Part shown: in pieces, positions 1-51,358 of the stretch
Layout: every line of letters begins with the position of its first letter
Numbering within the stretch: position 1 is the stretch's first letter
Origin: Pseudovirgaria hyperparasitica
Taxonomy: Eukaryota
DNA length: 51,451 nucleotides
Assembly: GCA_010093815.1 (NCBI GenBank)
Contig: ML996581.1
Reading direction: 5' to 3' (one strand)
The notes under the pieces: model-generated
The model's database searches: none
Seen by the model: only the letters and a program-made list of their open reading frames with translations
What the model was told of the DNA's origin: nothing
Position numbers and translations under genes: made by a program

Positions 1-2033
1 AAAGCATCTTGAAACACCGGAAAATGCAAGGACAGAGGCCATGAGCGGGCGGCTACGCAGTGCAAGGTTGGGCACGCCGACTTGCAGTACATACAGTTCA
101 TCTTGATCGAATGCGACAAGGCGTCCGGTTCTGGTTATGTAATCTCCGAAAAGCACAAGTTCAGTCGCTCCAAAGAAGCCAAAACTCTCTGCAAGCGGTG
201 TAGGTGTGTCGATTCGCCCAAATGATTGCGGTTTTGTAGCATATTCTTTCAATATCGATAGTTCGCGGGTACTGGATCGTGTTGATATGCCATCAAGTAC
301 TTGACGTTTTAGTCTCACAAGACTCTTCTGGGAGCTTTTGGCTTGAGGATAGCAACATGTATATCCGTATGCTACACAGCGGGAACATGATGGTTTTATT
401 TCGTCACACTGTATTCATTTTTAGCCATCTGACCAGATACCGCTTACGACAATGCAATGGATCGACTGTTGTTTCGATGGCTTACCTTTTTTCTCTGCTG
501 CTTACATCGCAAACATCCATTCCTGGATTTTCCATGAGGTCTGCGAAACTTGAACTCAGATGTTATCGACATCATTGACATGGCGCGAGCAGTAATTAGC
601 GTAAGGAATGAGATGTCTGTCTATGGTCGGACTTTGATTCTAGAAGGGAGGGCTCATTAGGATTGATATTATACGCGTGATGGATCTATCCGAGAACCGG
701 TGGCTCAGTCTGGTACCGCGCGATCCGGCAAACAGTCGAGCCCCGCTCTGGGCACTCCCGTGTGCTCAGCCATATTGCGGCTGAATGCATCGGCTCGGAC
801 AGGGTCTCACCGTAAATCTCCTGGCTTATAACAGAATCTCCTTCCGGACTTGCTTACAATTCTGATTATCTGCATCTTTGCCCTTCCTTGCTTGCATCAA
901 TCACACTGGCGGTCGGAATTCTCTGACATACTTTGTACCGCTCCTCCAAGTTGGGTGTTCCGCAAAATCCAACTCATCATGCACGAGGATGCTTAGCAAT
1001 AAGATCGAGGACTTTTTACACACGAGGGGTGTCTTTGGATGGAGAGTGGATACAGCTCCGAACAGAGTAGAATTCGAGGTCTTGGTGACTTTCGAATCCT
1101 AGACCAGATATATCATATTAGTAAATGTGCCCAGAAACAAAGGATTTGAGCTTCCGATCTTGTGCCAGCAGAAATGATCCCGAAGGTAGATAAAATAAAG
1201 GGTATGAGGTGGTTGATGACTTGATTATTGTCAGTATCTTGGACTTCCAGTCCAGAGCAAGACAGTGATGACGGACAACACACAATACAAATGGAATGGC
1301 GGCCCGGATACTGAGCATGGGAGGTCTTTTAATCAATGAGGCTTCCTTCCATCGGAAGTTGACATGCGGATCTTCGTTTCTTTCGGATCAGTACGCCTGT
1401 AGATGTTGATGGGACATGGTTTCTTGGCTTGTGTGAAAATGACTCCCCGCATTGAAGGACACCAGACAATTACAATTACATGTACTAAATAGCAAAGTGT
1501 GAAGCTAGAGAGCTCCAAAAGCTATGCCGTGTATGCAGGACAACCAACAGACACCTGTGGGGTGGAATGGATGGAGTGGAAATATTGAACGGGCCACTCC
1601 GGGACCAACTCAGCCGCGGTCCAACCACAATAATAATTTGGCATGCTAAGTTGTAAGCATTTCAGCCCCGTTGGCTTGGGCTGACAGGGAACATTCGTCG
1701 ATTTGTCACGTAGCCACTAAGCTGCTAAGCCTACCCCAAGTGCCAGCAAAATAAAAGTCAGGTGCGTTTGCGTATGCTGACCTCGTGCGTATAACGCCTA
1801 TACGCTTCATAAGTGAGCAAGAGCACTGCTAGCCTTACGAGACGGAAAGACGATCATTCCTTGTAGAGCGAAATGCCTTGGAACAATTTGCAGTCGTAAA
1901 CGCGGCAGTGTATATATTCGAGATATAAAGATGTTGAGATGGCAGGCAAAAAAAGTGTCAACTCACTTACTCGCAACATCAGACTCCAAATCAACACTAT
2001 CAATTTGCAATCAAGATTATCTTCAGAAACAAA

Positions 2034-2863
2034 ATGATTTCCAAGATTCCTCCTCATGTCTTCCTTGCCATCATGGCTTTGTCTCCTGCCATACACGCTG
2101 CACCTCGTCCAGTCACTAGAGAATCTCCTTCTGGTCTTAGTTTGACGCAGCAACTTACTCTGGCAGACACGTACGTCACAAATGATCGATGGATATCACA
2201 GCCTTGACAAATTCATGTAGTGCTGCCGACCGATATGCCCTCCTGCCGAATGACTCTGACTTCGTATACGACTTCAATACTGCCAGCCCGCAGCTGCCCA
2301 ATCGCAAGAATTTCCCAGCGCTCGTTGGCACCGGAGTCAGCATGGCTACGGCATCTTTTCCAGGTATGTTCTCAATCGCCCTCACCCGAACTCATGATCA
2401 CGACGGGAACAACTAACGTCATTTATGAGTAGCCTGCGTTGTAGCCCCAGTCCATATCCACCCCCGAGCCACTGAGCTGTTCCTCGTCACCTCCGGTACA
2501 ATTCAGACCACCCTGATCCCCGAATTCGGCGCTGGTCCTCTACCGTCAACATCAAATACTGCGAACCCAAATACCCGCATCATATCCAACACTTTGACCG
2601 CAGGCCAGATGACTGTTTTCCCTCAGGGTGGCTTCCACCTGCAGATCAATCCAACGTGTGAGAATGCGACTGCGGCGGCGGCATTCTCGAGCGATGACGA
2701 AGGGGTCATCGCAATCGTACCTAGTTTAGTTTCTCTGAATGAAGGGTTACTACAGGATGTGTTTGGTCAGAGTCTCGGTGCGGAGGAGATCGGTCGGGTC
2801 AGAGAGGCGGCGAAGCAGGGGCTGGCGCTCATGGAGGAGTGTAAGAAGAGCTGTGGTCTTTGA
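2034..2863 (+). CDS. Secreted germin-like / spherulin-1-like cupin, ~236 aa, 3 exons (2034-2170, 2221-2363, 2433-2863)
   Basis: The hand-spliced frame is open. It has a hydrophobic N-terminus (MISKIPPHVFLAIMALSPAIHA). Introns are GTACGT..TAG (2171-2220) and GTATGT..CTAAC..TAG (2364-2432). Germin box 1 is HIHPRATE and box 2 is VFPQGGFHLQIN. Confidence 0.9.
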
Positions 2864-3882: not shown

Positions 3883-6800
3883 ATGACCACACTCGAAGAT
3901 GTCAAGAAACATCTTCGTCTAGAGGCCGATGCGTACATGCCATTCAATCGACGACCTCTGACAGACGAAGAATACGGCAATGGTTTTGCCATCATACGCA
4001 ACGGATCGGGTGCGTTGATCTACGAAAACTTCATTGTTCCTCAACTCTCACGTGTTACATCTTATCTTCTTAAATTTCAGACAAGCCTTACTTGCCTTGA
4101 AGTCGGTCCAGGACCAAGAAGTGTTCTTGGTGCACTACCTCTTGATGTTCGTCGAAGCATCACCAAGTTCGATGTCTTCGAGCCGAATGTCTTATTCGCA
4201 TTGGAGTTACAAGAGTGGCTTGAACCTACCACAGGAATTGATCCTCCGTTTCCATCATTATGCGACAAGTCTACTATTCATGTAGAAAGATTCGGGATAG
4301 ACTCGCGCCCATCCATAGCGAACTCCACACCCCAGTACAACCTGATATTGTTCTGTCAAAGTCTATACGGACTATCTCCGAAGCACGAGGTCGTTCGTCA
4401 AGCTCTTAGTATGGCCACCAAGGCTGGGATCGTGGTTGTGGTTCATCGAGGCACTTCGCTGGATCTCGGTAGCCTTGTGTGCCACGACAACGTGTTCGAT
4501 ACAACGGGGCAAGTTCAGGTTGAAGAAAGTGATGAAGCTCTGGATCGCTTCTCTGCATTCGTGGCAGGTTTCAAGCCCAGTGAAGTGGATACAGATAAGA
4601 GTATCCGGCCCAAGTGGCGCGCGGTATGCCGTGAGTACGGAAAGCATGAGATGAGCAAGCCCACTCGTATATCCTTCTCTTGCCCTACCATGATGGTCAC
4701 GTTCAATCATGGCGCGACTGCGCTGACGGAACTTATAGACAAAGTTCCCATAGCCGAGCCTGGAAGGAGAATCAAGAATTCCGAAGCACGACTGAATCAT
4801 CCCGCTGCGATATTAAGACCAAAGGATCATGTTCAAGTTCAAGAGTGCGTAAGATGGGCACTTAAAAACAAAGTAGGCCTTAGTGTCATGAGCGGAAGCC
4901 ACAGTGGGCACTGCCAATGGTCCAATGTGGTAGCAATCGATATGGAGGCATTCGACCAGATTCATATCATCAAGAATCAAAGGTCAGACATAGAGTCTCT
5001 GGTGGTTGCTGGCACCGGCTGCAAGGGCGGAGATATTGTCAAACGAGCAATGGCAGAACGCCTGAGTATTCCCTTGGGATCTCGTCCGAGTGTCGGTGCA
5101 GGACTATGGCTACAAGGTGGCATCGGTCATCTTGGTAGGCAGTATGGCCTTACGTGTGACTCCATCATTGGAGTTGTCCTTGTTGGTGTCGAGTCTGGTC
5201 AAATATTTTACATTGGGAATGTGCCAGCTCAATACAGACCAGCGGGTGCCACCCGTCCAGAATTCGAACTTGACTTGCTCTGGGCAATCAAGGGAGCTGG
5301 AACCAATTTTGGCATTGTCACCCACGTCATATTCAAAGCTGTTCCAGCTCTCGTTCACTCTGTTCAGCACTACGAGCTACGACTTTCCACATCAGACGAG
5401 GTCTGTTTGGAACTTGGAAATTTTCATCGGCTGCTCGCTAGCAAGGCTCCTCGTGAAGAGTCTGTCGATGCCTACCTATATACTTACAAAGGTCAGCAGA
5501 TACTAGCGTGGTCGGTCATTAAAACCTCCACCACGAAGCTCCGCTTTGCAGGCTTAGTACCCATGAAGGAGAGCACAACGGCCCACCACTCTAGTATTGT
5601 TGATGATAATGGCCTTTTTGATGAAGAATACCACATCTCAAGCATGCCGGGTGACCATGGGAGTGGCAAGACGTCGTCTTTCAAACGATGTGTCTTTCTC
5701 AAGAGCATAGAAACAGCAGAAGTTCGTGAGAACCTTTCCAGAGCTACATCTTCTGCCCCTTCGGAGTCTTGCTATGTCCATCTACTACATGGTGGAGGAG
5801 CCATGGCTGATGTCTTAGAGAGTTCAACTGCTTTCGGCTGCCGCGACTGGGAATACGCCTGCGTGATTACCGGCGTCTGGAAGCGAGACAAGGATGGCAC
5901 ACCTATTTCGAGACGTACCGTGGGATGGGTGTATGACACCGTGAACAGTTTCCTACCGCTATGCAGTGGTATATATGGTGCGGACCTAGGGCCAGATCCA
6001 CGGGACCTCCCTCTCGCAGCCAAAGCATTCGGGTCCAACCGACCTCGCCTTGCTCGACTGAAGGACACACTTGATCCTTATAATGTATTAGCATATGCAT
6101 GCCCCCTACCACCAATCACTCAAGGACAGAAACTCATTGTTCTTGTGAGCGGAGATACGTGCGCTGGCAAGGATTATTGTGCTAAGATATGGGCCGACTC
6201 TATCAATGCATGCATGCCCAAAGCTAACTACGCCCAAGTGATCAGTATCAGTAACCAAGCAAAGAAAGACTATGCGGCCGCTACACCTGGATGTGATTTA
6301 GACCAGCTCCTCTATGATCGCGCCTACAAAGAGGAGCACCGTGCGGCCCTAACATTGTTCTGGCAGCACCAGATGGCGCTGAATCCACAGCTTCCTGAGG
6401 AGCACTTCCTCGATACAGTGGCCGGGGCTGCAGCTGCAGATGTCTTATTCATCACTGGCATCCGGGACGATGCTCCTGTGGCAACTTTATCCTATCTAGT
6501 CCCAGCATGCCGAGTCGTCGAAGTTCGCGTTACATCCAGTAGAAATGTACGGGAGGTCCGTTCTAATGGCAGAGACAAGCTCGAATCAATGGCTCTCAAG
6601 CATCGTCCTTGTCTCAATTTCGAGAACAATGCAAATGGGCCCGAACTAGCCAAAGGATTTGCGACACGTTATCTATTCCCATACCTCCACGAAGATCTCC
6701 GGAGCCTGGCTGAGTTGGTAAACAAAGTACGCAACTTTCCTACACCCGGCACAGACTTTTGTCACATTCTTGGAATTGTACAACGACCCGGAGGTCTGAG

Positions 6801-7275
6801 CCTCTGCACTTCACTCCTACAGGCCCACTTCCATGGCTCTTGGTCAGATATCGACGCCATCGTATCTTGTGAAGCTGGTGGGTTCATCTTTGCATCTGCC
6901 TTGGCAATTCAAGTCAAGAAGCCTCTCATCTTGATCCGTCGAGCTGGAAAGCTTCCGCGTCCAACGGTTTCAGTACTAAAGCCTCAATCATACATATCAA
7001 TTGTAGGTCAGACTGCCAAAGAACCTGAGAGGCTTGAGATGGATCGTGATGCTCTGCCAAGAGGGGCCTCCGTAGCTATTGTGGATGACGTACTATCCAC
7101 TGGAAGGACAATGTGTGCAGTGTTAGAGCTGTTGGAGCAGACTGGGGTCAGCGCCGAGAAGATTAGGATTCTTACGGTGGCAGAATTTCCAGTTCATCGT
7201 GGAAGACAGCTAATACAAAGAGGCGGATATGGGAGGAGCTTAGTCCAAAGTCTCCTAGTCTTTGGTAATAAATAG
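3883..7275 (+). CDS. 1130-aa multidomain enzyme: class I SAM methyltransferase-like + VAO/berberine-bridge-type FAD oxidoreductase + animal-type phosphomevalonate-kinase-like P-loop domain + APRT-like type I phosphoribosyltransferase
   Basis: Intronless ORF. SAM motif I: LEVGPGP. FAD-binding PCMH/BBE motifs: PAAILRP..VMSGSHS, GLWLQGGIGHLGRQYGLTCD, LLWAIKGAGTNFGIVT, FGSNRPRLARLKDTLDPYN. PMVK-like motifs: SGDTCAGKDY and LLYDRAYKEEHR. APRT/PRPP-binding motifs: NFPTPG, EAGGFIFA, IRRAGKLP, IVDDVLSTGRT. Confidence 0.9.
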   Translation: MTTLEDVKKHLRLEADAYMPFNRRPLTDEEYGNGFAIIRNGSGALIYENFIVPQLSRVTSYLLKFQTSLTCLEVGPGPRSVLGALPLDVRRSITKFDVFEPNVLFALELQEWLEPTTGIDPPFPSLCDKSTIHVERFGIDSRPSIANSTPQYNLILFCQSLYGLSPKHEVVRQALSMATKAGIVVVVHRGTSLDLGSLVCHDNVFDTTGQVQVEESDEALDRFSAFVAGFKPSEVDTDKSIRPKWRAVCREYGKHEMSKPTRISFSCPTMMVTFNHGATALTELIDKVPIAEPGRRIKNSEARLNHPAAILRPKDHVQVQECVRWALKNKVGLSVMSGSHSGHCQWSNVVAIDMEAFDQIHIIKNQRSDIESLVVAGTGCKGGDIVKRAMAERLSIPLGSRPSVGAGLWLQGGIGHLGRQYGLTCDSIIGVVLVGVESGQIFYIGNVPAQYRPAGATRPEFELDLLWAIKGAGTNFGIVTHVIFKAVPALVHSVQHYELRLSTSDEVCLELGNFHRLLASKAPREESVDAYLYTYKGQQILAWSVIKTSTTKLRFAGLVPMKESTTAHHSSIVDDNGLFDEEYHISSMPGDHGSGKTSSFKRCVFLKSIETAEVRENLSRATSSAPSESCYVHLLHGGGAMADVLESSTAFGCRDWEYACVITGVWKRDKDGTPISRRTVGWVYDTVNSFLPLCSGIYGADLGPDPRDLPLAAKAFGSNRPRLARLKDTLDPYNVLAYACPLPPITQGQKLIVLVSGDTCAGKDYCAKIWADSINACMPKANYAQVISISNQAKKDYAAATPGCDLDQLLYDRAYKEEHRAALTLFWQHQMALNPQLPEEHFLDTVAGAAAADVLFITGIRDDAPVATLSYLVPACRVVEVRVTSSRNVREVRSNGRDKLESMALKHRPCLNFENNANGPELAKGFATRYLFPYLHEDLRSLAELVNKVRNFPTPGTDFCHILGIVQRPGGLSLCTSLLQAHFHGSWSDIDAIVSCEAGGFIFASALAIQVKKPLILIRRAGKLPRPTVSVLKPQSYISIVGQTAKEPERLEMDRDALPRGASVAIVDDVLSTGRTMCAVLELLEQTGVSAEKIRILTVAEFPVHRGRQLIQRGGYGRSLVQSLLVFGNK

Positions 7276-10200
7276 CTGTAGTTCGAAGCAGACTTCCTAT
7301 CAAACAATTAGTTCAATTCTATGCCTATATTTGAAGTTAAACTAAAGTACTTTAGTTTACTCTACTATATATTTAAACTAAACTATTAGTTATAGTAGTA
7401 GAATTATAGTTAACTAAGTTAAACTAAAGTTTAGTAGGTAGTTGAAGAATCTCGTAAATATAGTTAAAATATTATATATTTAAGGCTATATAGTCGATTT
7501 TTATACGTCTTAGTATATACCTAGGTAGATTTAAGTACTAAATTATCTAAATTTAATAAGAAACTAACTAGTATACTTTTACGTAAACTACTAGTTATAG
7601 ATAAGGCTATAACGCTACTAACTCTTTAAATCTTATAGATAGTCGATTAATAGTAGACTTATCTTACTTCGTTATAGTATAATTATATCTTCTACCTTAC
7701 TAAATATATATTTATTATTATAGCTTAAAGCTAGTATAGAGAGTATATTAATTATAAGTTTATAAAGGTAAGAAAACTTATTCTTTCTATCTAGCTACTA
7801 CTAGATTAGACTATCTATAATATTAGACTTACTATTAAGGCGATAATAGATACTTAGCTTATCCTTCTCTTATCTTTTAGGGCTCTTTATCTTTATTTTA
7901 TCTAAGTATTACTCTACTTATAATAGCTAAGATAGAGATTATATAACTAGAAGAGATAGAGATAGTAGTAAGAAGAGTAATAGAGATTAGTATAATAATA
8001 ATAATAATAATATTATATAACTAGGTAGAGTAGTTTACTCTATAGGCGTATACCTTCTCTAGTCTAAGCTATTATATAAGAAGAAACCTTTATATAAGGA
8101 AAAACTCCCTTTTCTCTATAATTATATCTTGTGAAACCTTCGTATTATCTTAAGTATATAGCCGTTAGGAATATCTATAGACCTATAACCTATAGTACTA
8201 TTATTTTACCCTTAGGTAGCACGTATAGAGTACGGGGGTTATTAGTTAAGAGTTACCCTTAACTAATAATCGGGGTTCTCCCGGGGTTCTTCCGGCGTAT
8301 ACCGGGGTCTATCTAGTATATACCTAGTTACTTCTAGTATATATATCTAGGTCTATTAGTATTAGGGAAGAGGGAGATATATAAGTATCTACTAGGCGAT
8401 CTCCTTAGGGTACTTATTAAGCTACTATATAATATTAGAGGTCCTTATTATATAGATAAGCGATTATCTCTATATATAGAGGTCCGGGTATATCGCGAGA
8501 TAGTACTATATTATATCTCTCCGGCCGTATACTTTATACTATAGAGACGCGTCTAGAACGCCCCTCTAGTATAGATAGTATAGAAGTTCTATAGCTTCTA
8601 TTTAGGCTTAGAGGAGGATACATACTTAGGCTTTTATAAGCCCCTTATATATCTATCTACTTAGCTCCTTCTATAGTCCCTAAATCTATTCTAGATATCT
8701 ATTCTATTAGGATACCTAATAGGTCTAGAGGACTTTCTTCTATTTATCCTAGGTCTATAACCGTATAGCCTATATAAGCTCTTAAGGGTTCTACCGGTCT
8801 AGGGAGGCGTCTGGGTTATCCCCGATCTCTTATATAATTTAGTTTAAGTCTATCTCTATTAGGCTCTTATACTATAGTCGATTCTAGTCTATATATAGTA
8901 GTACTTAATAGTAGATACTAACTTATATATATAGCACGGTAAAGGTATATTTAGCGTATCCTACGCGTTCCTATACTTATTATTTAGTAAAGTATATTAC
9001 CCTCTATATCTAGTAGAAGTTATATATACTTATTACGTTTATCTCGCGCCGTAGTAGTACTATATTAGTAGCCTTATATACGCTAGAAATAAGATAGAGT
9101 ATATAGTTCTATATAGACTTAAGCTTTATTCGCCTAGCCTATATAAGGGCTATATACTAGTACTCGTATCTATACGTGAAGGCGGGTTATACTATAGAGA
9201 TATATAGTTAGCGTACCTTATCCTAGGCGGTTTCCTATATAGAGGCCGTAATCTAGTATATAGCGGCTTCTACCTTAAGGGCCCTAGATACTATATATAT
9301 AATCTATAGGCCCTATTTAAGTTTATTATTAATTATAACGCTAAGTACGTATATACTCTATATCGGCGGTTTAGTAAAAGCATCTATTCTAGGATATTAC
9401 TCTCCTTCCTTAGTAGCCTATTTCCTATAGTAGTTAATAAAGTATATAAGTTAGTATTTCTTAGAGGCAAACTTTACTCTATAGCGCTTTATCTACTAGA
9501 TATATCTCTTATAGTCTTATTCGAGGTGTTTATATATTAAACTAGTATTATTATTAATAGCTAGGAGGTATATATCGTCGGCGTATCCTACTACCTCTAT
9601 ATATTATATTCTCTATAGAAGGTCTACGGTAAAGAAGAGAAAGAGAATTAGGGAGATAGTACTTCCTTATAGAATACTATATATTATCTTCTTATATTTA
9701 CTTTAATATCTAGAGATATATATCTAGGTAATTCTTTTAGTAAGAAAGGACTATATAAACCTTATAATCTATTCGGGTATATATCTCTTCTATAGATTAT
9801 AGATAAGTCTTATATAGTTTATCTTATTAAATGCGCCGGCTATATTAAGGGAGAGTAATGTTACTACGCGTCTCTATTTCTATATAGTCTAGATAACTTT
9901 AAGGATATATTAGATAGTAGTAATTAGGGAGCTCCTAGTTTTCACCTTCTAATTTACTAGAAGAAGGTTATATTCTTATACTATGGTACTTATCTTCTTC
10001 GTAATCGTGGCCTTAAGTATTTTACTAAGATAGAAGAGAAGGGTAATTAGTCTCTATCCTTTTAGGGAGTTAGGGTTCTTCCCTAGTTTTAGAAGTATAA
10101 TAGTATAGACAGCCCGGAAGCTTTAGAGGTGGTATCTATTCTTAGTATATATCTAGAAGATAAGGCTAATAAGTAGTAGGGTCACCTATATAGTATATTT

Positions 10201-11729
10201 AAGGTATCTATTTAGTATTCTATCTAGTCTAGACACTTTATCGTTCGAGAGTACTCTAATAGTATTAAGAATCTTCTCTTCCGTAATCTCTACGGGGATA
10301 TTAACCGCGTCTAGATATATATTATTATTAATATCTAATAGATCTACTAGCTCTAGGGGGGGAAATATAACTTCTTAGAGAATCTCTATCTTTTCGGGGC
10401 TCGTAGTATATATTCTCCCCTAGTATATTAGGGGAGGTATTAGTAGTAGTAGCGTCTACACGTCCGCGCTCTTAGCCTACTTTACTATATACTATAGCCC
10501 TATAGTCTATTATATATATTTATTAGTAATTATATACTAGTATTTATATTATTTATTATAGAGGGTCTTATCTTAAGATTGGATTATCTCTTTCTATTCC
10601 TCCTATGCCTTAGTTATCTAGATATAGTATACGCGTGTATATAGTCTCCGGGCTACCCTTCTACTTTTATATATTTAAGGTATACCCCTTACGTCTAGAG
10701 GCTTATACGTTTAGTATAGTACGTATTTATCTCTTAAGTTTTAGAAGGCTTAAAGAAGAACTTACACGGCTCTATCTATAGCTAGGCTATTAGAGACGTT
10801 AACTATAGAGGGGTCTAGAATCGCCGATCCTAGGTTCTTCCTATACTTCTCCTAGTTAGTATCTTTCTATAGCTATCTCCCCTATTATTCGTTAGGTATA
10901 GATATATCTATCGCGGTCTCTATATATTTATAATTAGAGTCTATTTACGTCTTACTAGGGCGGTAGTATTATACTCTATAGCTTATATATTCTATAGCGA
11001 AGGTAAGGTTAAGTATAGATCCCTCCTTATCTTCCTTATATTTCCTCTATATAATTTATCTAACCGGCGTAAGAAGGTATAGAAGGTTATAGTACCTTAT
11101 ATATAGCTCTCTTACTCTAAGCTCTTCCCTAATAACTATTAGGCCTCCCTACTATCTATAGTAGAGGTTAAAGTTATCTAGAAGGATATATTATTCTAGT
11201 TCCGTAATACTCTCTAGTATAGTATCTAGTATAAGTAATTCTCTCTAGTTATAGATATTATAGATATAGAGGGGCCCTATATCTATCTAGAGGTATAGTA
11301 TTATCTAGAGATTATCTTATTCTATATAGAACTATTCTAAGAGCGGGATAGATTTATATATATAGAAGAGAACTCTCCTATCTAGGCCCGGGGGGTAGAT
11401 AGTATAGTATTCTAGGTGTGTCGTTAGTTTATTAGTTTAGTAGTATTTATAAGGTTCCTAAATAGCTATTATTATAGCGTCTATCTCTTCTAGAAGCATA
11501 GCCTAGTTTTCTTATTTATAGTATATATTCGCCTATATAATAATAAGTATATCTTAACTCCTTATTAGGTGCTAGGAAATACTTAAGCCTATATACTAGT
11601 AGCGTTAAGGCGCGACTATCTCTACGCGGTAGCTACCTTAAGAATACCCTAGGGTTATTCTATCTTCCTTTATATAGTATACTATTACACGTTAGCCTCT
11701 TCTTCTTATAGATTAGTTAGTATAGTTAT

Positions 11730-11967
11730 TGTAAAGAGTAAAGACGTGGGATAGTAGTCTAACAGTTCATAGAGAGATATAGGAATGTATTTATAGAGTA
11801 ATCTTACTCTCATACGAGGTTGATTCCTAACGAGTAGGAATCGGTTTATACGGTCCACTTATATAGTAACCTCGCTTAACTTAGCTAACTTAACCCAGCT
11901 CTGGCCACTACGTGGCTGTATAGATTAGAATAGTCTATATAGGTCCGTTATAGTTCCCGTCCTAATA
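11730..11967 (-). repeat. 3' LTR of chromovirus A
   Basis: TGTAAAGAG...CCTAATA, a direct repeat of 19535-19772. Confidence 0.95.
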
Positions 11968-12446
11968 ATATCCTTCTTCTTTTTATACTTCGCCCCGAAG
12001 TACTTAAGTATATATAATCCTAAGTCTCTATAATCTATCGTGTATCTATATATCCGTAACTAAGTTCCTATAACGTTATAACTATTCTTAATATAGGTGA
12101 ACTCGAGATTCTAGTTTACTTTTATTAGTTTATATACGCGCTTATCCCTTGCTTCGTGGCTACTACCTAGGACACGTAATCGCTACTTTAGTCGAGCATA
12201 TATTTAGCTTCGCTTACCTTTAATTTTATTCTCTAGTATATCTACCTCGCTCTTAAGGTAAGTCGTTAATTTATATACTATCTTCCCTAGTTTAGGTTTA
12301 GAAGGGTCTATAGTGGTCCATTCTTATTAGAACCGGTCCTATGTAACCTATTCGCGTTATTACGGTTACTAATTTAGCTTCGTCAATCGCCGTTAAGGGT
12401 GGACGAATATTCCTTTCTTAGATCTCTAGCTAACGTGTATATATAG

Positions 12447-13850
12447 ATGTCTAATACTAGTCCTATCTCTAAGCCTACCTCCTCCTCTCGTAAGACTCGC
12501 TCTAAAGGTATCGCCTCCTCCCCGGCCACGCCGGCTAAGAAGCCCACCTATCGCGGTAGTATAAAGGCGCGCTCTAAGTCGGAGAAGAGAGTAGCTAGGG
12601 CTACTACTACTACTACCTCTACTACTAATATGGCCACTAGTCGCTCTAATCTAGGTAATCCTAGTACTAAACTTATGGATAAAGTGGTCGTAGGTTCTCC
12701 TCTCGCTCTAAAGCGCACGCCGCCTACTCTACCTCCTCTAGAGGATAAAGAAGATCTTATTATAGATGATAATCGCGAGCCCTCGCGCTCACCCACGCCG
12801 CCGCCTCGCCGCTTTTCCTTCCGGTCTAACATGGACCGATTTAGTCGCTCTAGGTCCTTTTAGGACCTTAATATTCGCTCTAAACCCCAGCCTACTAATA
12901 ATAAGGCCTAGGTCGCCGAGGATACTAAACGTGGTCACGGTTTATACTATAGGAAAACGGCGAACTACGGTTCGATATACTATAAGTGTATTAAGGGCTA
13001 TACGGCCGGCTCTAAATATCTCTTTCGCTCTAACTCTAGCATTAGCTACTACTCTACTAACCGCGACGGGCCTATACGCCCTATCTTTACTCTACCTACC
13101 CGCTACCGCCGCTATACCGTGACTAGTAAGACTTATCTATAGGTAAGTATAATGGGCTATCTTAATCTAGTATGATCTAAAGTGGTCCGCGCTAATACAT
13201 TCTTAGGTTCCTATGCGTATATAAGATATATATAACGACCTTCGCGTCCGCGAGACCCTCGGGGGTCCTTATAGCCGCCTATCTACTATATAGAGGGAGT
13301 TTAGGGAGCGCTATAAGCTCTTCCTAGAGGTTATTAAAGTATAAGTTACGAGCACGTTAATTATTTTTAACACCCGTTGATTTTTCTAGCCGCCGCGAGA
13401 TCCCTAGCGCCTAGGCTACCTATTCTAGGGAGTCTATCCTAGCTATAGAGGCCGTAGAGAGGATTCGCTCTATCCCCCCCTATCCGTCTCGCGCTACTAA
13501 CGGATCTCGTAAGAGGTCTACTATTTCTCCCTCTAAGTCGCCTTATAAGAGGGTATATATTCCCTTCTAGATTATTCTAGATCGTGTTAGCTAACTTTAG
13601 ACCTAGTCGCTACGCTCTAGCGCTTAAGGCTCTTCTCTCTAGGCTCTAACGGATCGGGTTATTACTCTAGAGGCTAAGGTCGTCGTTCTCCGCCGCTATG
13701 TCGTGTAGTTAGAGAGGACTATACTAGAGATTAGGACGGATAATAAGATAGAGAAGTAGCTCTATGGTTCTGGCTCTATATGTTAGCTCTATGCCTAGCT
13801 CTATATATTCTAGATCTACTATAGGTGGTGCGCGCCGGCTCTGTTTACCT
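12447..13850 (+). pseudogene. Antisense accessory gene inside chromovirus A: basic S/P/R-rich N-terminus, Cys-rich Zn-cluster-like motif, introns; 3' end approximate
   Basis: ORF 12447-12863 continues in frame through TAG stops to (C)RR(C)TVTSKT(C)L* at 13104-13142. An intron GTAAGT..GCTAAT..TAG (13143-13206) follows, then VPMR... in frame. The Cys calls rest on reverting TAT/TAC to TGT/TGC. Confidence 0.6.
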
Positions 13851-16800
13851 AGCTTTTATCTATTTTAGTCCTTTTTGGACCGTTTAGATACCCGTCGGCC
13901 AGTTTCTAGTAATTTAATTCTTAACTTAATGATATTATATGTGCGCTCGCTTAGCTTATGACTATCGGTTTCTACATTCTAATTTTCCTTGAGTTACCTA
14001 AGTGTGGGCACCGTATATAAATTGGTTTATCTCTATAAATTCCATTAGAGTACCCGAACTAGTGGCCTAGTAGTTATTAGTTTAGATACTCTAACCTTTT
14101 ATATTTCGTGTTAAGAGTTTAATTCTATGGTGGGGTACCTTTTTTTAGGTTCTTAGTCCCATGTTTTTCTCGTGTATAATGGTCCATATTAGTCTATTCT
14201 AGACTCTTCTATGTTATTCTATTGTAGTGTGTCGCGTCGCGTTCCTAAAATGGTTATTTACGCTTTCTTCGCGTCTAGTAACCGTGCGACGCTTGAATTA
14301 TGGGGCTACCATATAGAGTTTTCCTAGTACGCGTCTAGATTTCCTGGTTTAGCACTTCGTTCTCTACGGTATCCTTCTTCTTTTTATAACGACCGCGACG
14401 TCGCTATGCTTATATTAATAATACGCTATTCTATATCTTTTACTTATACGCAGCCATTATAGAACTTAAGATATATACCGCTAGTTCCTAGGTGTCCTCG
14501 TCCTTAGTATAGTCCTTCTAACGGATTCTATATTTCTAAACACCGTCTTTATCAATCCTATGTTTAATAATATAGTCCACTTCGAACACGTCTAGTCCAT
14601 CTTAGGGTATAATAGAGTATAACTATACGTTCGTACGGCCATACACGTTAGGTCGAAATCTTTCGAGTAGTAAGACGTGGAACACGTTATAGATTCTTAT
14701 ATCGCTTCCTAAGTTAAGCTCGTAGACTCTTATACTAATACGACGTTTAATTCGGAAGGGACCAGCCATTTTATAATCGAGCTTCTTATTTACTCGCGAT
14801 GTTCATATATTACGGACGTTAAGAAGGACCTCGTCGCCCTCCTCGTACGTCTAATCCTTAGCTAACCTATTATAGTACTTCGTATACGAGTCGTTTACTT
14901 ATTAGATTATAGCGCGATAGTTACGTACGGTTTTAAAGATTTTAATCGCTAATTCCTAAGCGTGGACGTTCACGTCTATTATTCGATTAAATTAGACCGT
15001 CTAAGGCTTAAAACCTATCCTTAGACTGCGTCCGAGGTTCGCCTAGAAAGGTATAATACCTGTCGTACTATAACGACTATTATTATATACGAACTCTACT
15101 ATACTTAGTAGAGAGGCCTAGTCGTTCTACTTAAAATTATAGAATACACGTAGGTAGGCCTCGAGCGTCTAGTTCTATCGCTCTATCTAGCTATCCGTCT
15201 AAGGATAAAATACTATAGACATATTTCTATTTATACTTACCATTTCGTAGAATAACGTCTAGAATTTAGACGTGAAGGTACTTCCTCGGTCCATAACAAT
15301 CCTTTTTAGTATACCATGGACCTTAATAATCTCGTTCTAGAACACCTACGCTAGTTCTTTAGATGTAATCGTCTTCTACACTAGGATATACCTAGATATC
15401 TTTATAAGTCTATCTATAATAATAAGAATAGAATTATAACTCATCCTAAGTATCTCGCTTAGAGGTAAGTCAACTATAAAGTCTATAGTAATATCTTCCC
15501 ACATAAAGAGGGGGGCTAAAAGAGGCTGTAAATTCCTATATAGCTTATACCTAGGGGCCTTCGTTCTTTGATAAATCGGATAAGTAGCTATCTATTCTTT
15601 AATATACTTGGGTATATCTTTCTAAAAATAGTACTAACGAATTAAGCTTAGGGTACGTATATATCTAAAGTATCCTACTAGGTTAGCGTTATAGTATCGG
15701 CTAACTACGTTAAATCGCGCGTTACCCGTCGGCATATAGTACTTTCTATCATAGTAAAGTAAGCCGTCCATAAAGGTCTACTTATAGTCTACTTTAGTCC
15801 GTAATAACCTATCTTACTATATTTTACGTAACTTTAAAACTATCGGGTCTATCTTCTATAGATCCACGATTAACTAGGCGAGGTTAATTAGATATTTACG
15901 CCGGGTATTATCGCCCTTCCCGACAGCGCTAATAAACGGTCTACTAGGGACTTCGGTACCGCGTCTTTAGTTACCGGCTTCGGTCTTAGAGATTCGATTA
16001 CCGGTATTAACGTTAGCATCTCGCTAATCGCCTAATAACTTAAAATCTAACCTTATCCTTAAGAGTTAGGCCTATAGCTACTCTAGGACCCTATAGCCAC
16101 TATAATCCTAGGCGCCTTCTTTATAGTTAGGTCTTCTTAACATCCTATTAGCTAGGTTTATACTTCTAGGTCGATAGTAGATTATAAAGTAAAAGTTCGT
16201 AAGCTACTTAGCCCATTAGACCTATTAATAGTTTAAAACTATCGTGCTTATAAACCCCTTTAAGTTATAGTAATTAGTTAGTAACTCGACGTTATATATG
16301 GTACCTTTAAGATAATATCGCCACTATTTAAACGACTCTACTATTACTAGTAGCTCTTAGTTATAGATAGTATATCTAGTCTTAACATCGACTATTTTGC
16401 GTAAGAAGAACGTAACTAGATACTATTAGACCTTTTTAGACTTAGTTAGTCTAGACTAGAAGAGAATGCCTAAGATTATAAATTCTAACGCGTTAGTTTC
16501 GACGCGGATAGGTTTAGTTAGGTCGAAGTATACTAGTAATAGGGTAGTTATAAATGCCTCTTTGATTTTCTCGAAGGAGGCCCTTTCGCCTTCCGATAAT
16601 TCTATAGGCTACGATTTAATATTATACTATTTCTATCTACCGCGGACCGTAATAGACGAATCTATGGTAGTAGTACGCGTGTTAAGTAGTACTACTAGCC
16701 GGGAGAAATGCTTAACGAATTTTCGGTAGTAATTAGCGAATCCGATAAAGACACGTATATCTCGAACCGATCTTAGTTTAGACTAGTCCACGATAGTAGC

Positions 16801-19534
16801 GACCCTATCCCTTTCTATGGTTATACCTTAATTAGTAATAACGAAGCTAAGGAAGTTAACGTGGTCCTAGTAGAACTCGTATTTAGATAGCTTAATATAT
16901 AGCTTATGTTTTTCTAGCCTATCTAGGACTACGCGTACGTGCTAGATATGTTCTTCTTTGTTATTAGAGAAGATAAGGATGTTATCGAGGTATACGATGC
17001 ACGTTATATCGAGTAGGCCTACTAGCGCGTTATTAATGTACGCTTAGAAGGTTCCTAGCGCGTTAGTTAGTCTAAAAGGGACTACTATGTACTCGAAGTG
17101 TCTATAACGGGTCCTAAACGCCGTTTTCTACTTATCGCCCTTCTTAATACGTAGGCGGTAGTAGGCATCGCGTAGATTAAGCTTAGTAAAGATCTTCGTG
17201 CGCCCTAGTCTATTAATAGACTCGGAGATAAGAGGTAGTAGGTAACGATTCTTTCGCGTGATATTATTTAGGCTATAGTAGTTAACACATAGACGGAGAC
17301 TCCTATCCTTCTTCTTTATAAAGAGGATTAGAGCTCTAGCTAGGGATATACTAGGCCTAATCTATCCTTATATAAGGTTCTTTTCGATGTATTCTCGAAG
17401 GACCTATAGCTCGGGTTCTAATAGAGGGTAGATGGGTCCGTGTAGGGGTTATTAACCGTCTTCGAGGTTAATAGTAAGGTCGGTAGATTAGTATTAAGGT
17501 AATTTGGACGAGTCGATCGCTAACGCGACATGTTAGTATATTTTATACTAATATAGTAGGTTTTTATCTACTTTAATACTAAGCTCTCTATTTTAAGTAA
17601 GTAAGAGAACGTAGATAGCGGAGATTACCTTTTCGTAGTCCTTCTAGAATTATTCGTCGTCGACTAGCTATACTAGGTTCCATTATAGTAGGTACATGCG
17701 CTAGCCAGCTGTTTTCTAGATGAAGTCTAGTTTCGGGTTATATTTTTCAAGCTACGGTATACCGAGGATTATATCAAAGGGACTATCTACCATGATAAAG
17801 GTTAAGTAGTAGGGTTTCCACTTCCCCCCGCTATCCTAGATGCTATATTTAATAGTATAGATACCCTACGATTTAATAGGACCGTCGATACTATAGAAGG
17901 TAGCACCTATTAGTGCTTGAATATCGACGTTAAGTTCTCGTGCTCGTTAAGTTAATATAACGTTAGTAGCTAAACCGCTATTAAGCATTGCGGTCTAATG
18001 TTATCTATAAGGGACCTCGATAGGCCTAGCCTATAGTTTAATATACTAGTTGGCTAGTTATCCCTCTATTTTAGTTGCGTCTACGAGTCGCGAGGGTTCC
18101 TTATAGATAGTTAGTTTTTTATATCGTGTACCGGGTAGTTAGGCGCGATGTGTCCTAGCTACTAGCACTTATAGTATATAACTAACTTAGTATCTATATT
18201 AGTATTCGGTGGTTTCCCTAAGCGGTACTCGGGTACTATATAGTCTATTCTACCATAGGTATAGTAGGTGACTTTAGGTCGTTTATATAAGTCGTTTCTC
18301 ACGTCTTAATATATCGACTAGTAGAAAGATCCGCGGTACGGGCCTCGTCTTCTTAAGTTCGTAGAGTAGTAGCGCCCATAAGGTGTTCCGCGCGATCTAT
18401 TACTAAACCGGTCCTCTTTAGACGATTTTATATCGGATTAGATTAATAGGGATAGTCGTGCGCCTATACGACGTTAGTTATTTATTATACGCTAATGTTA
18501 TTCTATAAGATTCGCGAGTGCCTAAAGGTTAGTAGAGATAGACATTATAAGGTCGATGCGTTCCTTTACGCTCGGGTTAAGAGACCTTTTAAAGTTATCG
18601 CATTATCGAACCATGTAATCTTCCTCGGCTTCTCTCTAAAGAGGTCGGAGGTATTTAAGGAGTTATAACGGGGATTGTCTCTCTCGCTATTAAGTCTTAA
18701 AGATATAGCTCTAAGCCTATTCGCGTCGCTCGGCTCTATTACCGAAGTATTAAAGAAGGAATTCGGTGAACGTGTCCTAGTTATACGCATCCTTAGGGTG
18801 TTTAATTCGATGTACTATCTAACGTTTAGATGGCGTTAGGTCTAGGTAGTTCTATACGAACCTAATCTTATTACTATCGTTTATAAATAGGTAGAAGAAT
18901 CGGCTATACTAGTAAGCCTATTCGTGAAAGCTCCTCCTGGTTTTACCGTCGAAGTAAGGTGGTTTCTTAGGCCAAGGTAACTAGGATAGTAATAGACTTA
19001 GTTAGACTGTTTTAGCTTAAGTTAATCCATATTAGTATAGATTAGTTGCTACTAGCACTAAAGCGCGTAGTACGGCTTCGAGTCTAGCGGTTCGTCCTCG
19101 CGCTTCATTGAGTTTACGAAGTTACTACTCGAGCTAAGCCTAACGCTACCTCTCCGTGTATAGCTTGGTATATACGTCGTTATAAGGCGTGGTTAACGTT
19201 AGTCGGTTCTAACGAATTAATTCGTTAACGTTAATAGAGTCTAGTCTTATAGTAAGAATAGGTCTAGTATAGTATAAACTAGACCGCGATGGAGTATGAT
19301 GGACTCCTTCCTTATTACCTAGGTAATCTTCTACGGTTATACGGAATACCGTACTAGTTATTAGTGCGATAGCCTATAGGGTGTACTTATCGGTGGAGGT
19401 AGTCATAGGGAGACTATTCTCTTCGTTTAGATTTAGAGAGAGTCTCTCGTATAAGGTAGTGCCACGGGTATTATAGCGCGTAGTAGGAGCTATCTCTATA
19501 AGCTACTATCGTGCTATATAGAGAGGAATTAAAA

Positions 19535-19772
19535 TATAAAGAGTGAAGACGTGGGATAGTAGTCTAATAGTTTATAGAGAGATATAGGAATGTATTTATA
19601 GAGTAATCTTACTCTTATACGAGGTTGATTCCTAACGAGTAGGAATCGGTTTGTACGGTCCACTTATATAGTGACCTCGCTTAACTCAGCTAACTTAACC
19701 TAGCTCTGGCCACTACGTGGCTACATGGATTAGAATGGTCCATATAGGTCCGTTATGGTTCCCGTCCTAACA
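19535..19772 (-). repeat. 5' LTR of chromovirus A
   Basis: TATAAAGAG...CCTAACA, 238 bp, matches 11730-11967. Confidence 0.95.
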
Positions 19773-22700: not shown

Positions 22701-24179
22701 GATAAAGTAGATAATAGACTAGAGTACTATAATTAGACCTTTTTTCCGCTATTCTTAAAGGAAGGTAAGCTTAGTAATAAGATTCTTAGATAACTTATTA
22801 AATGCATTCTTATTCTTACTAAAAAGAAGCGCCTAGGTAGTAAGATTAAGATAGTATAGAAAGTAATAAAGACGTGAATATTTACCTATACTAGGGAGTT
22901 CCTTTATAAGGAGTTCTACTACTATAGTATTATTATTTACTCTATTAAGGACGAAGTAGCTAACTCTATCTTTAATCCCCTATCTCTTAAGTATAGCTAT
23001 TATTAGATTCTTAAAGTTTTTACTAGTATAGCTACCTCTAATCTCTAGTAGACTAAGGGAAATATCTATAAAGATACTATCCCTATTAATAAAGTATACG
23101 GTATATAACTATAGAGAGAGATAATAGTTTTATAAGCTCTAGCTATTAAATAAGATATAAATCTTTAAGATAGTAGTATTTAGAATACTATAGAGGGATT
23201 TAGAGGCTTCTATATATATCTTTATAATATAGCTCCTAAGAGTATCTATACTTAGCTATATTACTACTTCTATCTCTAGATTTACCTTTATAATAGTATT
23301 ATAGAGATAGCTATTTTTAATTATCTATAGAGACTAAGAGTTAAGGATAATCTACTTAGCTATTAATTAATTAAAGCTATTAGATTGGAAAGTCTTAATA
23401 AGTAGATTTACTATATTCTATTCTATCCTTAACTTCTTAATTATTATCTTAAGTACGTCGCCTTATATACGCTTCCTTTTCCTATCTCTATATATAGAGT
23501 ATTTATTATAGAGATATTCTACTAAGTTTATTATTAAGTCTACCTTAAATTATCTATCTAAACGTCTCTTATAATAGTATATATAATACCACTAGTACTT
23601 TACTCTATTATTTATCTATTAGAGATAATACCCGTATCGCTAGATCTAGCTAAAGCTATTAGCCCGCTTAACTATCTCTATAGACTTAATAAAGAATAAG
23701 AGATATTACTAATTAATATCTTTATATATAGACTTATTATTAGGGTTAATAATAGAGTTATAATCTAGATCTTCTACGCTATCTATATTATCTAATTCTA
23801 TTCTAGAGGGCTCTCGAACTAGATAACTATATAGATTAGTAGATATAGGCTCGTATAGAATAGGGCTAATACTAGAGAGAGATAGTATCGTCGAGTCATA
23901 GGTAGTAGTATCTTAAGTTAGTATTAGATTCTAAGATATATCTTAAGGCTTCTTTATATATATATTACGCTACGAACGCTCGGTCTAGCTATACTACTTT
24001 TTAAATATATCTTAAGAGTACTCCTTAGGGGCACGAATAGACCGCTAGAATACTATATTAAGGTTATTAACGTGTAGTTATTAACACGATAGTATTTAAT
24101 ATATATAGTAAATAAGGGAAGTTAGCCTACGGCCTAACTCTAGTACTTATAAAATTAGAATAATCTTAATACTATAGTC

Positions 24180-32916: not shown

Positions 32917-32968
32917 TATAAAGAAGCTATTCTTTTAATATATAAAAGAATATAGTATAGGCCTATAG

Positions 32969-42718: not shown

Positions 42719-42848
42719 AATATAAGGATAGAGTCTATTATACTCTATCTTAGTCTAGTTTAAACTATACTAGATCTAATCTTAATATAAGGATAGAGTC
42801 TATTATACTCTATCTTAGTCTAGTTTAAACTATACTAGATCTAATCTT
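42719..42848 (+). repeat. Perfect 65-bp tandem duplication within element C gag region
   Basis: AATATAAGGATAGAGTC...GATCTAATCTT occurs at 42719-42783 and 42784-42848. Element A has only one unit. Confidence 0.92.
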
Positions 42849-51356: not shown

Positions 51357-51358
51357 GG

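Follow-up and report, generated by a model that had tools for sequence, protein, structure and literature searches.

We gathered evidence suggesting that P0001, a four-domain fusion protein of Pseudovirgaria hyperparasitica, belongs to a family of tailoring enzymes that are coupled to GTP cyclohydrolase I and act on a GTP-derived pteridine rather than on adenine, a reading to which we assign a probability of roughly 0.6. The pteridine role is preferred over adenine because protein fusions and gene neighbourhoods connect this family with GTP cyclohydrolase I and with dihydroneopterin aldolase (FolB), which act at the start of pterin synthesis. The gene lies in a stretch of 51,451 nucleotides, hereafter the window (Table 1). 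Pfam recovered all four domains in P0001, the methyltransferase below its cutoff, and the catalytic and cofactor motifs are intact, in line with the four sets of motifs in one intronless ORF that a preliminary description had reported from the letters of the DNA. The same description mentioned similar fusions without an assigned function elsewhere in ascomycetes, and the same fusion indeed occurs in many of them. The family extends over diatoms, chromerids, a streptophyte alga, chytrids and ascomycetes, and no publication on it was found in the literature.

Table 1. The P0001 gene, its domains and its motifs in the window
Feature	Position (nt)	Strand	Residues (aa)	Details
Four-domain enzyme P0001	3883..7275	+		ATG-to-stop ORF, intronless, 1130 aa plus stop
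Class I SAM methyltransferase-like domain	3883..4752	+	1-290	Motif I L72-E-V-G75-P-G77, acidic E100
BBE/VAO-type FAD-linked oxidase	4753..6117	+	291-745	Predicted covalent-FAD H340 (nt 4900-4902)
P-loop kinase, animal phosphomevalonate-kinase family, NMP-kinase fold	6118..6687	+	746-935	
Kinase Walker A motif	6151-6174	+		G757-x4-G762-K763-D764
Type I phosphoribosyltransferase, APRT fold	6688..7272	+	936-1130	
PRPP loop	7072-7110	+		V1064-A-I-V-D1068-D1069-V-L-S-T1073-G1074-R-T1076

Three lines of evidence tie the family to GTP-derived pteridines, namely fusions with GTP cyclohydrolase I, fusions with FolB and adjacency to a GTP cyclohydrolase I gene; the evidence from fusions and that from adjacency came from separate searches. 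The Pfam fusion scan covered 18 divergent representatives. P0184 (1257 aa) carries GTP_cyclohydroI (203 bits) together with the methyltransferase, FAD_binding_4, phosphomevalonate kinase (PMVK) and phosphoribosyltransferase (PRTase) domains; P0225 and P0213 show the same fusion in partial form. All five domains are also present in P0271 of the diatom Odontella aurita, a product of 1347 aa from a complete transcript. In another lineage, represented by P0237/P0272, FolB (41.7 bits vs. 31.8) precedes the methyltransferase, FAD, PMVK and PRTase domains, the methyltransferase having been demonstrated by hhalign. Two fungal gene models, P0301 of A. glaucus and P0323 of Rutstroemia, begin with GTP cyclohydrolase I at the N-terminus; in such fungal models, tandem genes may have been merged during annotation.

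Across 79 metagenome loci, only one gene recurred as a neighbour, namely GTP cyclohydrolase I (Pfam 214 bits). It occurs in 18 of these loci, and in 17 of the 50 that include 2 kb or more of upstream sequence, at distances of 211-2738 nt from the family gene; the 18 placements comprise 12 divergent upstream, four tandem upstream and two downstream. When near-duplicates were collapsed at 85% identity, 10 of the 20 informative lineages had the gene; collapsing at 95% left 26 lineages, of which 13 had it. The other 33 of those 50 loci of relatives lack GTP cyclohydrolase I, as does the window's own locus, and none of the 79 loci yielded a FolB-like gene; these absences count against a pteridine role.

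The N-terminal domain of P0001 matched Methyltransf_23 (residues 55-188) with 19.7 bits, under the cutoff of 27. This weak call is confirmed because relatives exceed the cutoff (P0147, 36.8; P0191, 34.3; P0177, 32.2; P0181, 28.9 bits), because G75, G77 and E100 are invariant, the sole such methyltransferase columns over 37 sequences from diatom to fungi, and because the predicted model (pLDDT 88) matches the fold of histamine N-methyltransferase best. The Z-scores of these matches lie between 17.6 and 19.5 for 238-246 aligned residues, the top one (Z 19.5) having an r.m.s.d. of 3.2 Å over 246 residues. The next fold family comprises the mRNA-cap guanine-N7 methyltransferases (Z up to 17.0), and NNMT comes first when Foldseek hits to the domain are ranked by E-value. 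Judged by its predicted model, the domain thus appears closest to ring-nitrogen methyltransferases.

The second domain matched FAD_binding_4 (residues 307-441, 51.8 bits vs. cutoff 26.4), followed by a weak BBE tail (residues 713-738, 17.9 bits vs. cutoff 20.6), which lies over the cutoff in the relatives P0124 (23.0) and P0161 (21.1). Among PDB sequences, that of 6-hydroxy-D-nicotine oxidase (2bvf) matches it best (E 2.4e-17), with H340 aligned to chain residue 72 in the 'SGGH' motif of that structure. This histidine of the GGGHS motif is kept in 31 of the 33 rows with residues there, the two exceptions being fragment sequences. The cysteine in the 'gsCpgvg' segment of 6yjo, which presumably makes the second FAD bond (6-S-cysteinyl) in bicovalent enzymes, aligns with R401, which is invariant in the family and therefore points to monocovalent FAD as in 6-hydroxy-D-nicotine oxidase. 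By sequence, the domain resembles the C-N-oxidising BBE/6-hydroxy-D-nicotine oxidases: it shares FAD_binding_4, the BBE-type C-terminus and the flavinylation-site histidine with 2BVF, EncM and plant BBE-likes, but identity is low and the invariant arginine occupies the position of the 6yjo cysteine. We know of no BBE-like oxidase that is fused to methyltransferase, kinase or PRTase domains or tied to pterins. The link to cytokinin dehydrogenases drawn earlier was not borne out, as the oxidase is of this BBE-like type and no cytokinin-binding domain appeared among the seven Pfam families reported for P0001 at E<=1.

The kinase domain belongs to P-mevalo_kinase (residues 755-870, 61.4 bits vs. 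cutoff 33.8), and its model (pLDDT 91) aligns with human PMVK (3ch4_B) over 173 of 188 residues (Z 14.5, r.m.s.d. 3.4 Å), which upholds the earlier assignment to the animal PMVK (NMP-kinase) fold and not the GHMP fold. G757, G762, K763, D764, S790, K794, R813, E817 and R820 are invariant over 39 sequences. Human PMVK (3CH4; PF04275) thus has in common with P0001 the Pfam family, the best structural match and the GKD Walker A, and residues aligned with its K48, K69 and R73 are present. Its K17, R18 and K19, which we take to be the basic P-loop residues (in numbering and in role), instead align with D758, T759 and C760 in P0001 and with E-S-C in the family consensus, so that acidic, small and Cys residues replace the basic triad. 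The acceptor is probably other than mevalonate 5-phosphate because the PMVK equivalog TIGR01223 gave 20.9 bits against a cutoff of 188.15, the triad is replaced and an adenylate-kinase-related protein (Z 14.2) ties structurally with human PMVK. The phmmer matches to PMVKs in the PDB reached only E 0.06-1.2.

The kinase and methyltransferase folds might also suit a module acting upstream of GTP cyclohydrolase I, in which the methyltransferase and oxidase would modify a guanine-type base, PRTase and kinase would convert it to NMP and NDP, and the triphosphate would then be ring-expanded by GTP cyclohydrolase I to a modified pterin. Such a route would account for the association with GTP cyclohydrolase I; the pairing of a PRTase with a subsequent kinase is natural for the conversion of a base to NMP and NDP, the kinase has an NMP-kinase fold, and the second-best fold of the methyltransferase is that of guanine-N7 methyltransferases. 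We nevertheless regard it as unlikely, as the FolB fusion associates the module with reactions that follow ring expansion and the kinase falls in the PMVK family rather than among the guanylate kinases.

The copy in the window deserves separate consideration. Its ORF is not a chance ORF, because only three stop-free stretches of at least 150 aa, including this one, exist in the 51,451 bases. The first and last residues align with the ends of 24 full-length homologues, and no frameshifts or intron-sized gaps were found in this alignment. With a GC content of 0.50 and RIP indices of 0.69 and 1.29, the gene has the character of normal coding DNA, in contrast to its flanks, which bear a RIP signature and in which RIP-degraded repeats adjoin the gene. 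P0001 is only 51-53% identical to members of the core clade, which are 66-93% identical among themselves, and it sits on a long terminal branch (0.74) in the tree. GTP cyclohydrolase I is absent across the 51 kb (best tblastn E 0.056), and no synteny was found. The low identity, the long branch, the missing GTP cyclohydrolase I and synteny and the RIP-signature flanks would all be expected if this copy were a decaying or neofunctionalised paralogue that has no pteridine role. This appears quite unlikely in view of the ORF that is intact over 1130 codons, with every deep-invariant motif residue kept, and the normal RIP indices of the gene; moreover, the divergent copies at loci L049 and L064/L065 do adjoin GTP cyclohydrolase I. 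The window's copy is apparently an intact though divergent paralogue, unclustered with GTP cyclohydrolase I.

The C-terminal domain bears most directly on the adenine hypothesis. It matched Pribosyltran (residues 969-1101, 61.2 bits vs. cutoff 26.3), and none of D1068, D1069, G1074 and T1076 varies across 39 sequences; the PRPP loop and the Walker A motif of the kinase are invariant from diatom to ascomycete. According to the preliminary description, P0001 would make or detoxify a methylated or oxidised adenine derivative, either cytokinin-like or a nucleoside antimetabolite, with an APRT-like domain ribosylating the purine base. In both the PDB and NCBIfam, adenine PRTases match the domain best (E 3e-29 and 1e-17, respectively), Foldseek superimposed the domain on APRT structures with TM 0.84-0.90 and an r.m.s.d. 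of about 2 Å, the comparison with 2dy0 gave a VIA Z of 24.3, and F959 keeps the stacking residue matching Phe26 of human APRT. This resemblance to adenine PRTases in both sequence and fold counts against a pteridine role. P0001 shares with the APRTs (human 1ORE/4X45, E. coli 2DY0) the type I PRTase fold, the loop that binds the 5'-phosphate of PRPP, the acidic pair D1068-D1069 and an 'IRxxGKLP' segment, whereas in P0001 one loop is nine residues longer, the hood changes from VFRD to (D/E)F(C/R)H and the PRTase sits inside a protein of 1130 aa. The cutoffs of all NCBIfam APRT equivalogs, curated models that include NF002636 and TIGR01090, were missed, with a best score of 101.6 vs. 125 and another of 90.7 vs. 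185.85. When aligned to 4x45/6fch, Arg67 of human APRT corresponds to Gly999 in P0001, Glu104 to Ile1040 (Ser in the family consensus) and Tyr105 to Val1041 (Val or Leu in the family); E104 and Y105 are presumably the catalytic flexible-loop pair, and Arg67 presumably binds PPi. No IPT or LOG was found among the 111 flanking ORFs scanned in relatives, and the adenine hypothesis also leaves both the GTP cyclohydrolase I neighbour and the fusions with GTP cyclohydrolase I and FolB without explanation. With these losses and without a cytokinin-binding domain, we consider it very improbable. The broader proposal that a single gene may encode a pathway to a modified heterocycle nucleotide still stands, but the purine or cytokinin substrate is unsupported. 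To our knowledge, no type I PRTase acts on a pterin.

GTP cyclohydrolase I feeds 7-deazapurines too, and bacterial toyocamycin and tubercidin pathways combine it with a PRPP-dependent PRTase. A pathway to a 7-deazapurine nucleoside (preQ0, toyocamycin or tubercidin-like), started by GTP cyclohydrolase I and with the PRTase adding ribose phosphate to a deazaguanine base, would match this logic and the association with GTP cyclohydrolase I, but it is highly improbable, as no QueD, QueE or QueC domain occurs in any fusion or in the 111 flanking ORFs and the FolB fusion indicates the 6-hydroxymethylpterin branch. PRPP-dependent ribosylation of a base derived from GTP cyclohydrolase I is exemplified by the PRTases ToyH/TubC of the 7-deazapurine antibiotics, and Cns3 of the cordycepin/pentostatin cluster, the PRTase of which is HisG-type, shows kinase and PRTase joined in one protein for fungal nucleoside natural products. 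Unlike P0001, these proteins belong to other domain families, act on other bases (adenosine, 7-deazaguanine) and have no fused methyltransferase or oxidase.

The results above establish which domains are present, that their motifs are conserved and that the family is joined to GTP cyclohydrolase I and FolB; for the preferred pteridine role, we infer the substrate, step order and regiochemistry as follows. GTP cyclohydrolase I and dihydroneopterin aldolase would provide 6-hydroxymethyl-7,8-dihydropterin or a near relative of the dihydroneopterin type, the aldolase being dedicated in some lineages and otherwise the housekeeping folate enzyme. The N-terminal methyltransferase would methylate a ring nitrogen, for which N8 is the best candidate. 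The oxidase, carrying FAD covalently on its histidine, could then oxidise the adjacent C7-N8 bond, and hydration and a second oxidation would give a 7-oxo (isoxanthopterin-type) ring. With PRPP as the donor, the APRT-fold domain might attach a 5-phosphoribosyl group to the pteridine and so yield a beta-riboside 5'-phosphate. The PMVK-fold kinase might then add a further phosphate, either to the ribose 5'-phosphate or to the hydroxymethyl group; this kinase step is the weakest part of the proposed pathway.

The known metabolites fitting best are the orphan asperopterin pair A/B of Aspergillus oryzae, which we take to comprise 8-methyl-6-hydroxymethyl-isoxanthopterin and its beta-D-ribofuranoside. 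The available part of one source lists asperopterins as A. oryzae pteridines, one of them titled 'isoxanthopterin glycoside' (PMC6208954). No family member of A. oryzae/flavus was found among the matches listed, which reached down to 75% identity. More specifically, and only tentatively, the product could be a new pteridine nucleotide of a cofactor- or signal-like class, conserved from diatoms to ascomycetes and not a secondary product of one lineage: a methylated, 7-oxidised 6-hydroxymethylpterin with a beta-5-phosphoribosyl (or diphosphoribosyl) group. Asperopterin A would then be its dephosphorylated form and the APRT-fold domain the first type I PRTase for pteridines.

The penilumamide (plm) cluster of Aspergillus flavipes, as far as the available part of its description goes, offers a related fungal system, in which duplicate genes of GTP cyclohydrolase I and dihydroneopterin aldolase serve a methylated pteridine product (PMC10549243). 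The proposed P0001 pathway would resemble plm in leading from GTP to a methylated and oxidised pteridine of fungal secondary metabolism with the help of a methyltransferase and an FAD-type oxidoreductase; the copies of GTP cyclohydrolase I and dihydroneopterin aldolase in plm are dedicated duplicates. In the same portion of that source, the plm enzymes are separate and feed an NRPS, whereas P0001 unites four activities in one protein; the plm oxidoreductases are of GMC, aldehyde-dehydrogenase and FAD-dependent types, and no kinase or phosphoribosyltransferase is described, so that PRPP transfer and phosphorylation by P0001 would have no plm counterpart there (PMC10549243).

If the pteridine reading is correct, one conserved protein and GTP cyclohydrolase I would constitute a compact branch of pterin metabolism that is present in many eukaryotes but unstudied, and the two would form a small two-gene cassette. 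A fungal pteridine glycoside described around 1970 and so far without assigned genes would gain them, phosphoribosyltransferase chemistry would extend to pteridines, and the PMVK-fold kinase would gain a function beyond the mevalonate pathway. The misleading database names 'adenine phosphoribosyltransferase', 'phosphomevalonate kinase' and 'CAZyme family AA7', carried by hundreds of proteins, would be corrected.

We propose that the fusion protein is a GTP cyclohydrolase I-coupled pteridine-tailoring enzyme, a statement to which, taken as a whole, we assign a probability of about 0.6. The bare link to pteridine metabolism appears more secure than this statement, and an asperopterin-type product clearly less so. 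The ORF encoding the protein is not a chance feature because the entire 51,451-base window contains just three stop-free stretches of at least 150 codons. Its termini (MTTLEDVKK... and ...LLVFGNK) match the ends of 24 full-length homologues in the alignment, where frameshifts and intron-sized gaps are absent. The preliminary description of four enzyme domains in one ORF was correct, since the Pfam search recovered all four, the methyltransferase at a sub-cutoff score. All four domains look active, and the kinase and phosphoribosyltransferase (PRTase) domains are enzymes other than those named by their family labels.

Features of the fusion gene and its surroundings in the window (nucleotide positions unless residues are stated)
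Feature	Location	Strand	Evidence or remark
Fusion gene ORF, ATG to stop, 1130 codons	3883..7275	+	ORF call in window
Methyltransf_23	residues 55-188	+	Pfam, 19.7 bits, under cutoff 27
FAD_binding_4	residues 307-441	+	Pfam, 51.8 bits
BBE tail, weak	residues 713-738	+	Pfam
P-mevalo_kinase	residues 755-870	+	Pfam, 61.4 bits vs cutoff 33.8
Pribosyltran	residues 969-1101	+	Pfam, 61.2 bits vs cutoff 26.3
Zn2Cys6 DNA-binding-motif ORF fragment	1-414	-	21.6 bits; runs off window; upstream of fusion gene
Cupin_1 ORF	2429-2863	+	55 bits; upstream of fusion gene
Gene-free AT-rich repeat blocks	7276-24000, 32001-51451		GC 0.30-0.36; degenerate repeat copies
Inverted repeat arms	14932-18331 / 45835-49234		81% complementary
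Inverted repeat arms	37213-38420 / 44381-45588		92% complementary
362-aa stop-free stretch	25084-26172	+	GC-normal island (24-32 kb) between repeat blocks

The flanking ORFs of 79 metagenome loci encoding relatives were clustered, and GTP cyclohydrolase I (214 bits) was the only recurrent neighbour, present in 18 of the 79 loci and in 17 of the 50 whose upstream sequence reaches 2 kb or more. Its distance from the fusion gene is 211–2738 nt, and its placement is divergent upstream (12 cases), tandem upstream (4) or downstream (2). When near-duplicates were collapsed at 85% identity, 10 of 20 informative lineages had it; at 95%, 13 of 26 did. A fungal genome of about ten thousand genes carries one or a few copies of GTP cyclohydrolase I, so this adjacency cannot be chance. 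Two further families of neighbouring ORFs (17 and 16 sources) were discarded because their ORFs run antisense across the gene for GTP cyclohydrolase I. A Pfam scan of 111 other flank ORFs identified NLR/HET genes, transposases, P450s, MFS transporters and one HAD hydrolase. Neither another recurrent partner nor any purine or cytokinin gene was seen among them, and a gene resembling dihydroneopterin aldolase (FolB) was absent from the 79 loci and the window at E ≤ 1. In single loci, a P450 and an MFS transporter flank the fusion gene (L060:14704-18556), an MFS transporter lies immediately downstream (L008:13863-15072), or a HAD-type hydrolase lies upstream (L063:319-1188); in such occasional loci they may represent additional genes for the pathway or for export.

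Pterin-synthesis enzymes are also fused to the module, as found among 18 divergent representatives. In P0184, GTP cyclohydrolase I (203 bits) is N-terminal to the methyltransferase, FAD oxidase, kinase and PRTase; P0225 and P0213 are partial forms of this architecture, and all five domains occur together in P0271, the complete 1347-aa product of a diatom transcript. P0237 and P0272 contain FolB (41.7 bits against a cutoff of 31.8), followed by a methyltransferase-like domain according to profile comparison. GTP cyclohydrolase I also stands at the start of at least two fungal gene models, from A. glaucus and Rutstroemia, among the matches listed, which could be merged tandem genes. The module might instead act upstream of GTP cyclohydrolase I, making a modified guanine nucleotide that is then ring-expanded; this would account well for the pairing of PRTase and kinase but is hard to reconcile with the FolB fusion, and we regard it as rather improbable.

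The methyltransferase assignment is strengthened by divergent relatives, in which Methyltransf_23 exceeds the Pfam cutoff (P0147, 36.8; P0191, 34.3; P0177, 32.2; P0181, 28.9 bits). In a 37-sequence alignment that extends to diatom, chytrid and streptophyte-alga members, the sole invariant columns of this domain are G75 and G77, of the glycine-rich SAM loop, and E100, the acidic residue following strand 2. The confident structural model of the domain (pLDDT 88) matched best to histamine N-methyltransferase (HNMT; Z 17.6–19.5 for 238–246 aligned residues) and then to mRNA-cap guanine-N7 methyltransferases (Z up to 17.0), and ranking by Foldseek E-value placed nicotinamide N-methyltransferase first; all three methylate heteroaromatic ring nitrogens. 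The closest solved relative of the oxidase domain is 6-hydroxy-D-nicotine oxidase (E 2.4e-17), where residue 72 of the SGGH motif, whose histidine is the covalent-FAD site, aligns with H340. This histidine is present in 31 of 33 rows with residues at the site, both exceptions being fragment sequences. The cysteine of the 6yjo 'gsCpgvg' segment, through which BBE-type enzymes form their second link to FAD, pairs with Arg401, which is invariant in the family. A cysteine at residue 344 (nt 4912-4914), four residues past the flavinylation histidine (H-S-x-x-C), is conserved in 30 of 31 full-length sequences spanning diatom and fungal members.

In the kinase domain, the Walker A motif G757-x4-G762-K763-D764 and residues S790, K794, R813, E817 and R820 are invariant in 39 sequences. 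The PMVK-like character in the preliminary description agrees with the P-mevalo_kinase match and with the top structural match of the kinase half (pLDDT 91) to human phosphomevalonate kinase (PMVK; Z 14.5, 173 residues), effectively tied with an adenylate-kinase-related protein (Z 14.2). It does not extend to orthology: TIGR01223 gave 20.9 bits, whereas its cutoff is 188; where human PMVK has basic residues before GKD, the fusion kinase has D758/T759/C760. The PRTase domain has the APRT fold (Z 24.3, TM up to 0.90) with an invariant PRPP loop (D1068, D1069, G1074, T1076). Nevertheless, every NCBIfam APRT model scored under its cutoff. Residue alignment to human APRT shows that Arg67, Glu104 and Tyr105 of the human enzyme are replaced by Gly999, Ile1040 (Ser in the family) and Val1041, and that a loop is longer. 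The preliminary description suggested that the protein may make or detoxify an adenine derivative, cytokinin-like or otherwise. The APRT-like fold is the sole support for that substrate, which the missing APRT residues and the partners GTP cyclohydrolase I and FolB contradict, and we consider it very unlikely. A 7-deazapurine route is likewise very unlikely; in the fusions and the 111 flank ORFs scanned, none of its partners QueD, QueE and QueC was seen.

In the proposed pteridine-tailoring pathway, GTP cyclohydrolase I and the aldolase, coupled to the module by fusion and adjacency, would provide 6-hydroxymethyl-7,8-dihydropterin. From the chemistry of its domains, the HNMT-like domain would N-methylate a ring nitrogen, the 6-hydroxy-D-nicotine-oxidase-like flavoenzyme might carry out a C-N oxidation to a 7-oxo ring, the APRT-fold domain could transfer 5-phosphoribosyl from PRPP to give a beta-riboside, and the PMVK-fold kinase may add one more phosphorylation to an unspecified acceptor. 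The asperopterins are 8-methyl-6-hydroxymethyl-isoxanthopterin and its beta-D-ribofuranoside. To reach these structures, the aldolase product would have to undergo exactly an N-methylation, a C7 oxidation and a ribosylation. This resemblance to the proposed product is a lead and no test, and it leaves the kinase unexplained unless the riboside had lost its phosphate before isolation. The asperopterins of Aspergillus oryzae are described as pteridines, one being termed a natural isoxanthopterin glycoside (PMC6208954). As a precedent, the penilumamide cluster contains duplicated genes for GTP cyclohydrolase I and dihydroneopterin aldolase that are devoted to modified pteridines (PMC10549243). 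The domain families and fungal pteridine clusters are already known; a methyltransferase-oxidase-kinase-PRTase fusion with a GTP cyclohydrolase I partner is not. A literature search for the four-domain fusion or family, with bioRxiv supplements outside its scope, found no publication, and a protein atlas look-up returned the family's own clusters only.

Full-length four-domain proteins number more than 120 in Pezizomycotina, with 49–52% identity to the window protein; they are listed as hypothetical or under names such as 'adenine phosphoribosyltransferase', 'phosphoribosyl transferase domain protein' and 'CAZyme family AA7'. When 50%-identity representatives were searched exhaustively, 194 proteins were recovered at E ≤ 1e-30. 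Among the named members of the family are proteins of Mesostigma viride, Chromera velia, the chytrid Blyttiomyces helicus and the diatom Odontella aurita. A pattern-based single-protein scan of prokaryotic genomes, a method that detects close relatives only, found none among 73 pattern matches. The Pezizomycotina core clade, spanning Geoglosso-, Lecanoro-, Leotio-, Dothideo-, Sordario-, Eurotio- and Orbiliomycetes, shows 66–93% mutual identity over about 1160 residues (P0003–P0120 alignment), with internal branches of only 0.004–0.03 (FastTree, 61 rows). Typical inter-class orthologue identity is far lower, and either extreme constraint or horizontal spread could account for the difference. 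This identity does not establish that a mobile element is involved or that the gene spread horizontally in recent times. The tree follows taxonomy in part, needing 17 label changes where the minimum is 8 and shuffled labels average 39, and it unites the Eurotiomycete core copies in a single clade, but some starred groupings conflict with taxonomy (Tolypocladium with Meristemomyces; Orbilia within Leotiomycetes/Geoglossomycetes). Since Gaeumannomyces hyphopodioides holds one core and one divergent copy, the two lineages are paralogous. Several genomes carry two copies on separate contigs (Aspergillus chevalieri P0298/P0299, A. glaucus P0301/P0317), the Penicillium camemberti cluster (P0311) is found on 13 contigs, and NLR/HET genes and DDE transposases are frequent in relatives' flanks, which suggests that the gene resides in dynamic, accessory genome regions.

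The window copy is 51–53% identical to core-clade members. In the tree it has a long branch and pairs with Penicillium malachiteum among basal divergent copies, a grouping that is possibly long-branch attraction. A decaying paralogue is unlikely because the motifs are intact. At the window locus, neither GTP cyclohydrolase I nor a degraded remnant was detected (best E 0.056), no synteny with the 79 loci was found, and neither the Zn2Cys6 fragment nor the Cupin_1 ORF recurs beside relatives in those loci. The approximately 44 kb downstream of the fusion gene consist mostly of AT-rich degenerate repeats. The long stop-free stretch in the island between them has a sub-threshold protein-kinase match (28.5 bits vs 31.7) over about 40 residues. 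The repeat blocks are strongly RIP-type (TpA/ApT 1.68–1.75; (CpA+TpG)/(ApC+GpT) 0.11–0.22), and the fusion gene, right at the edge of such a block, has indices of 0.69 and 1.29, respectively.
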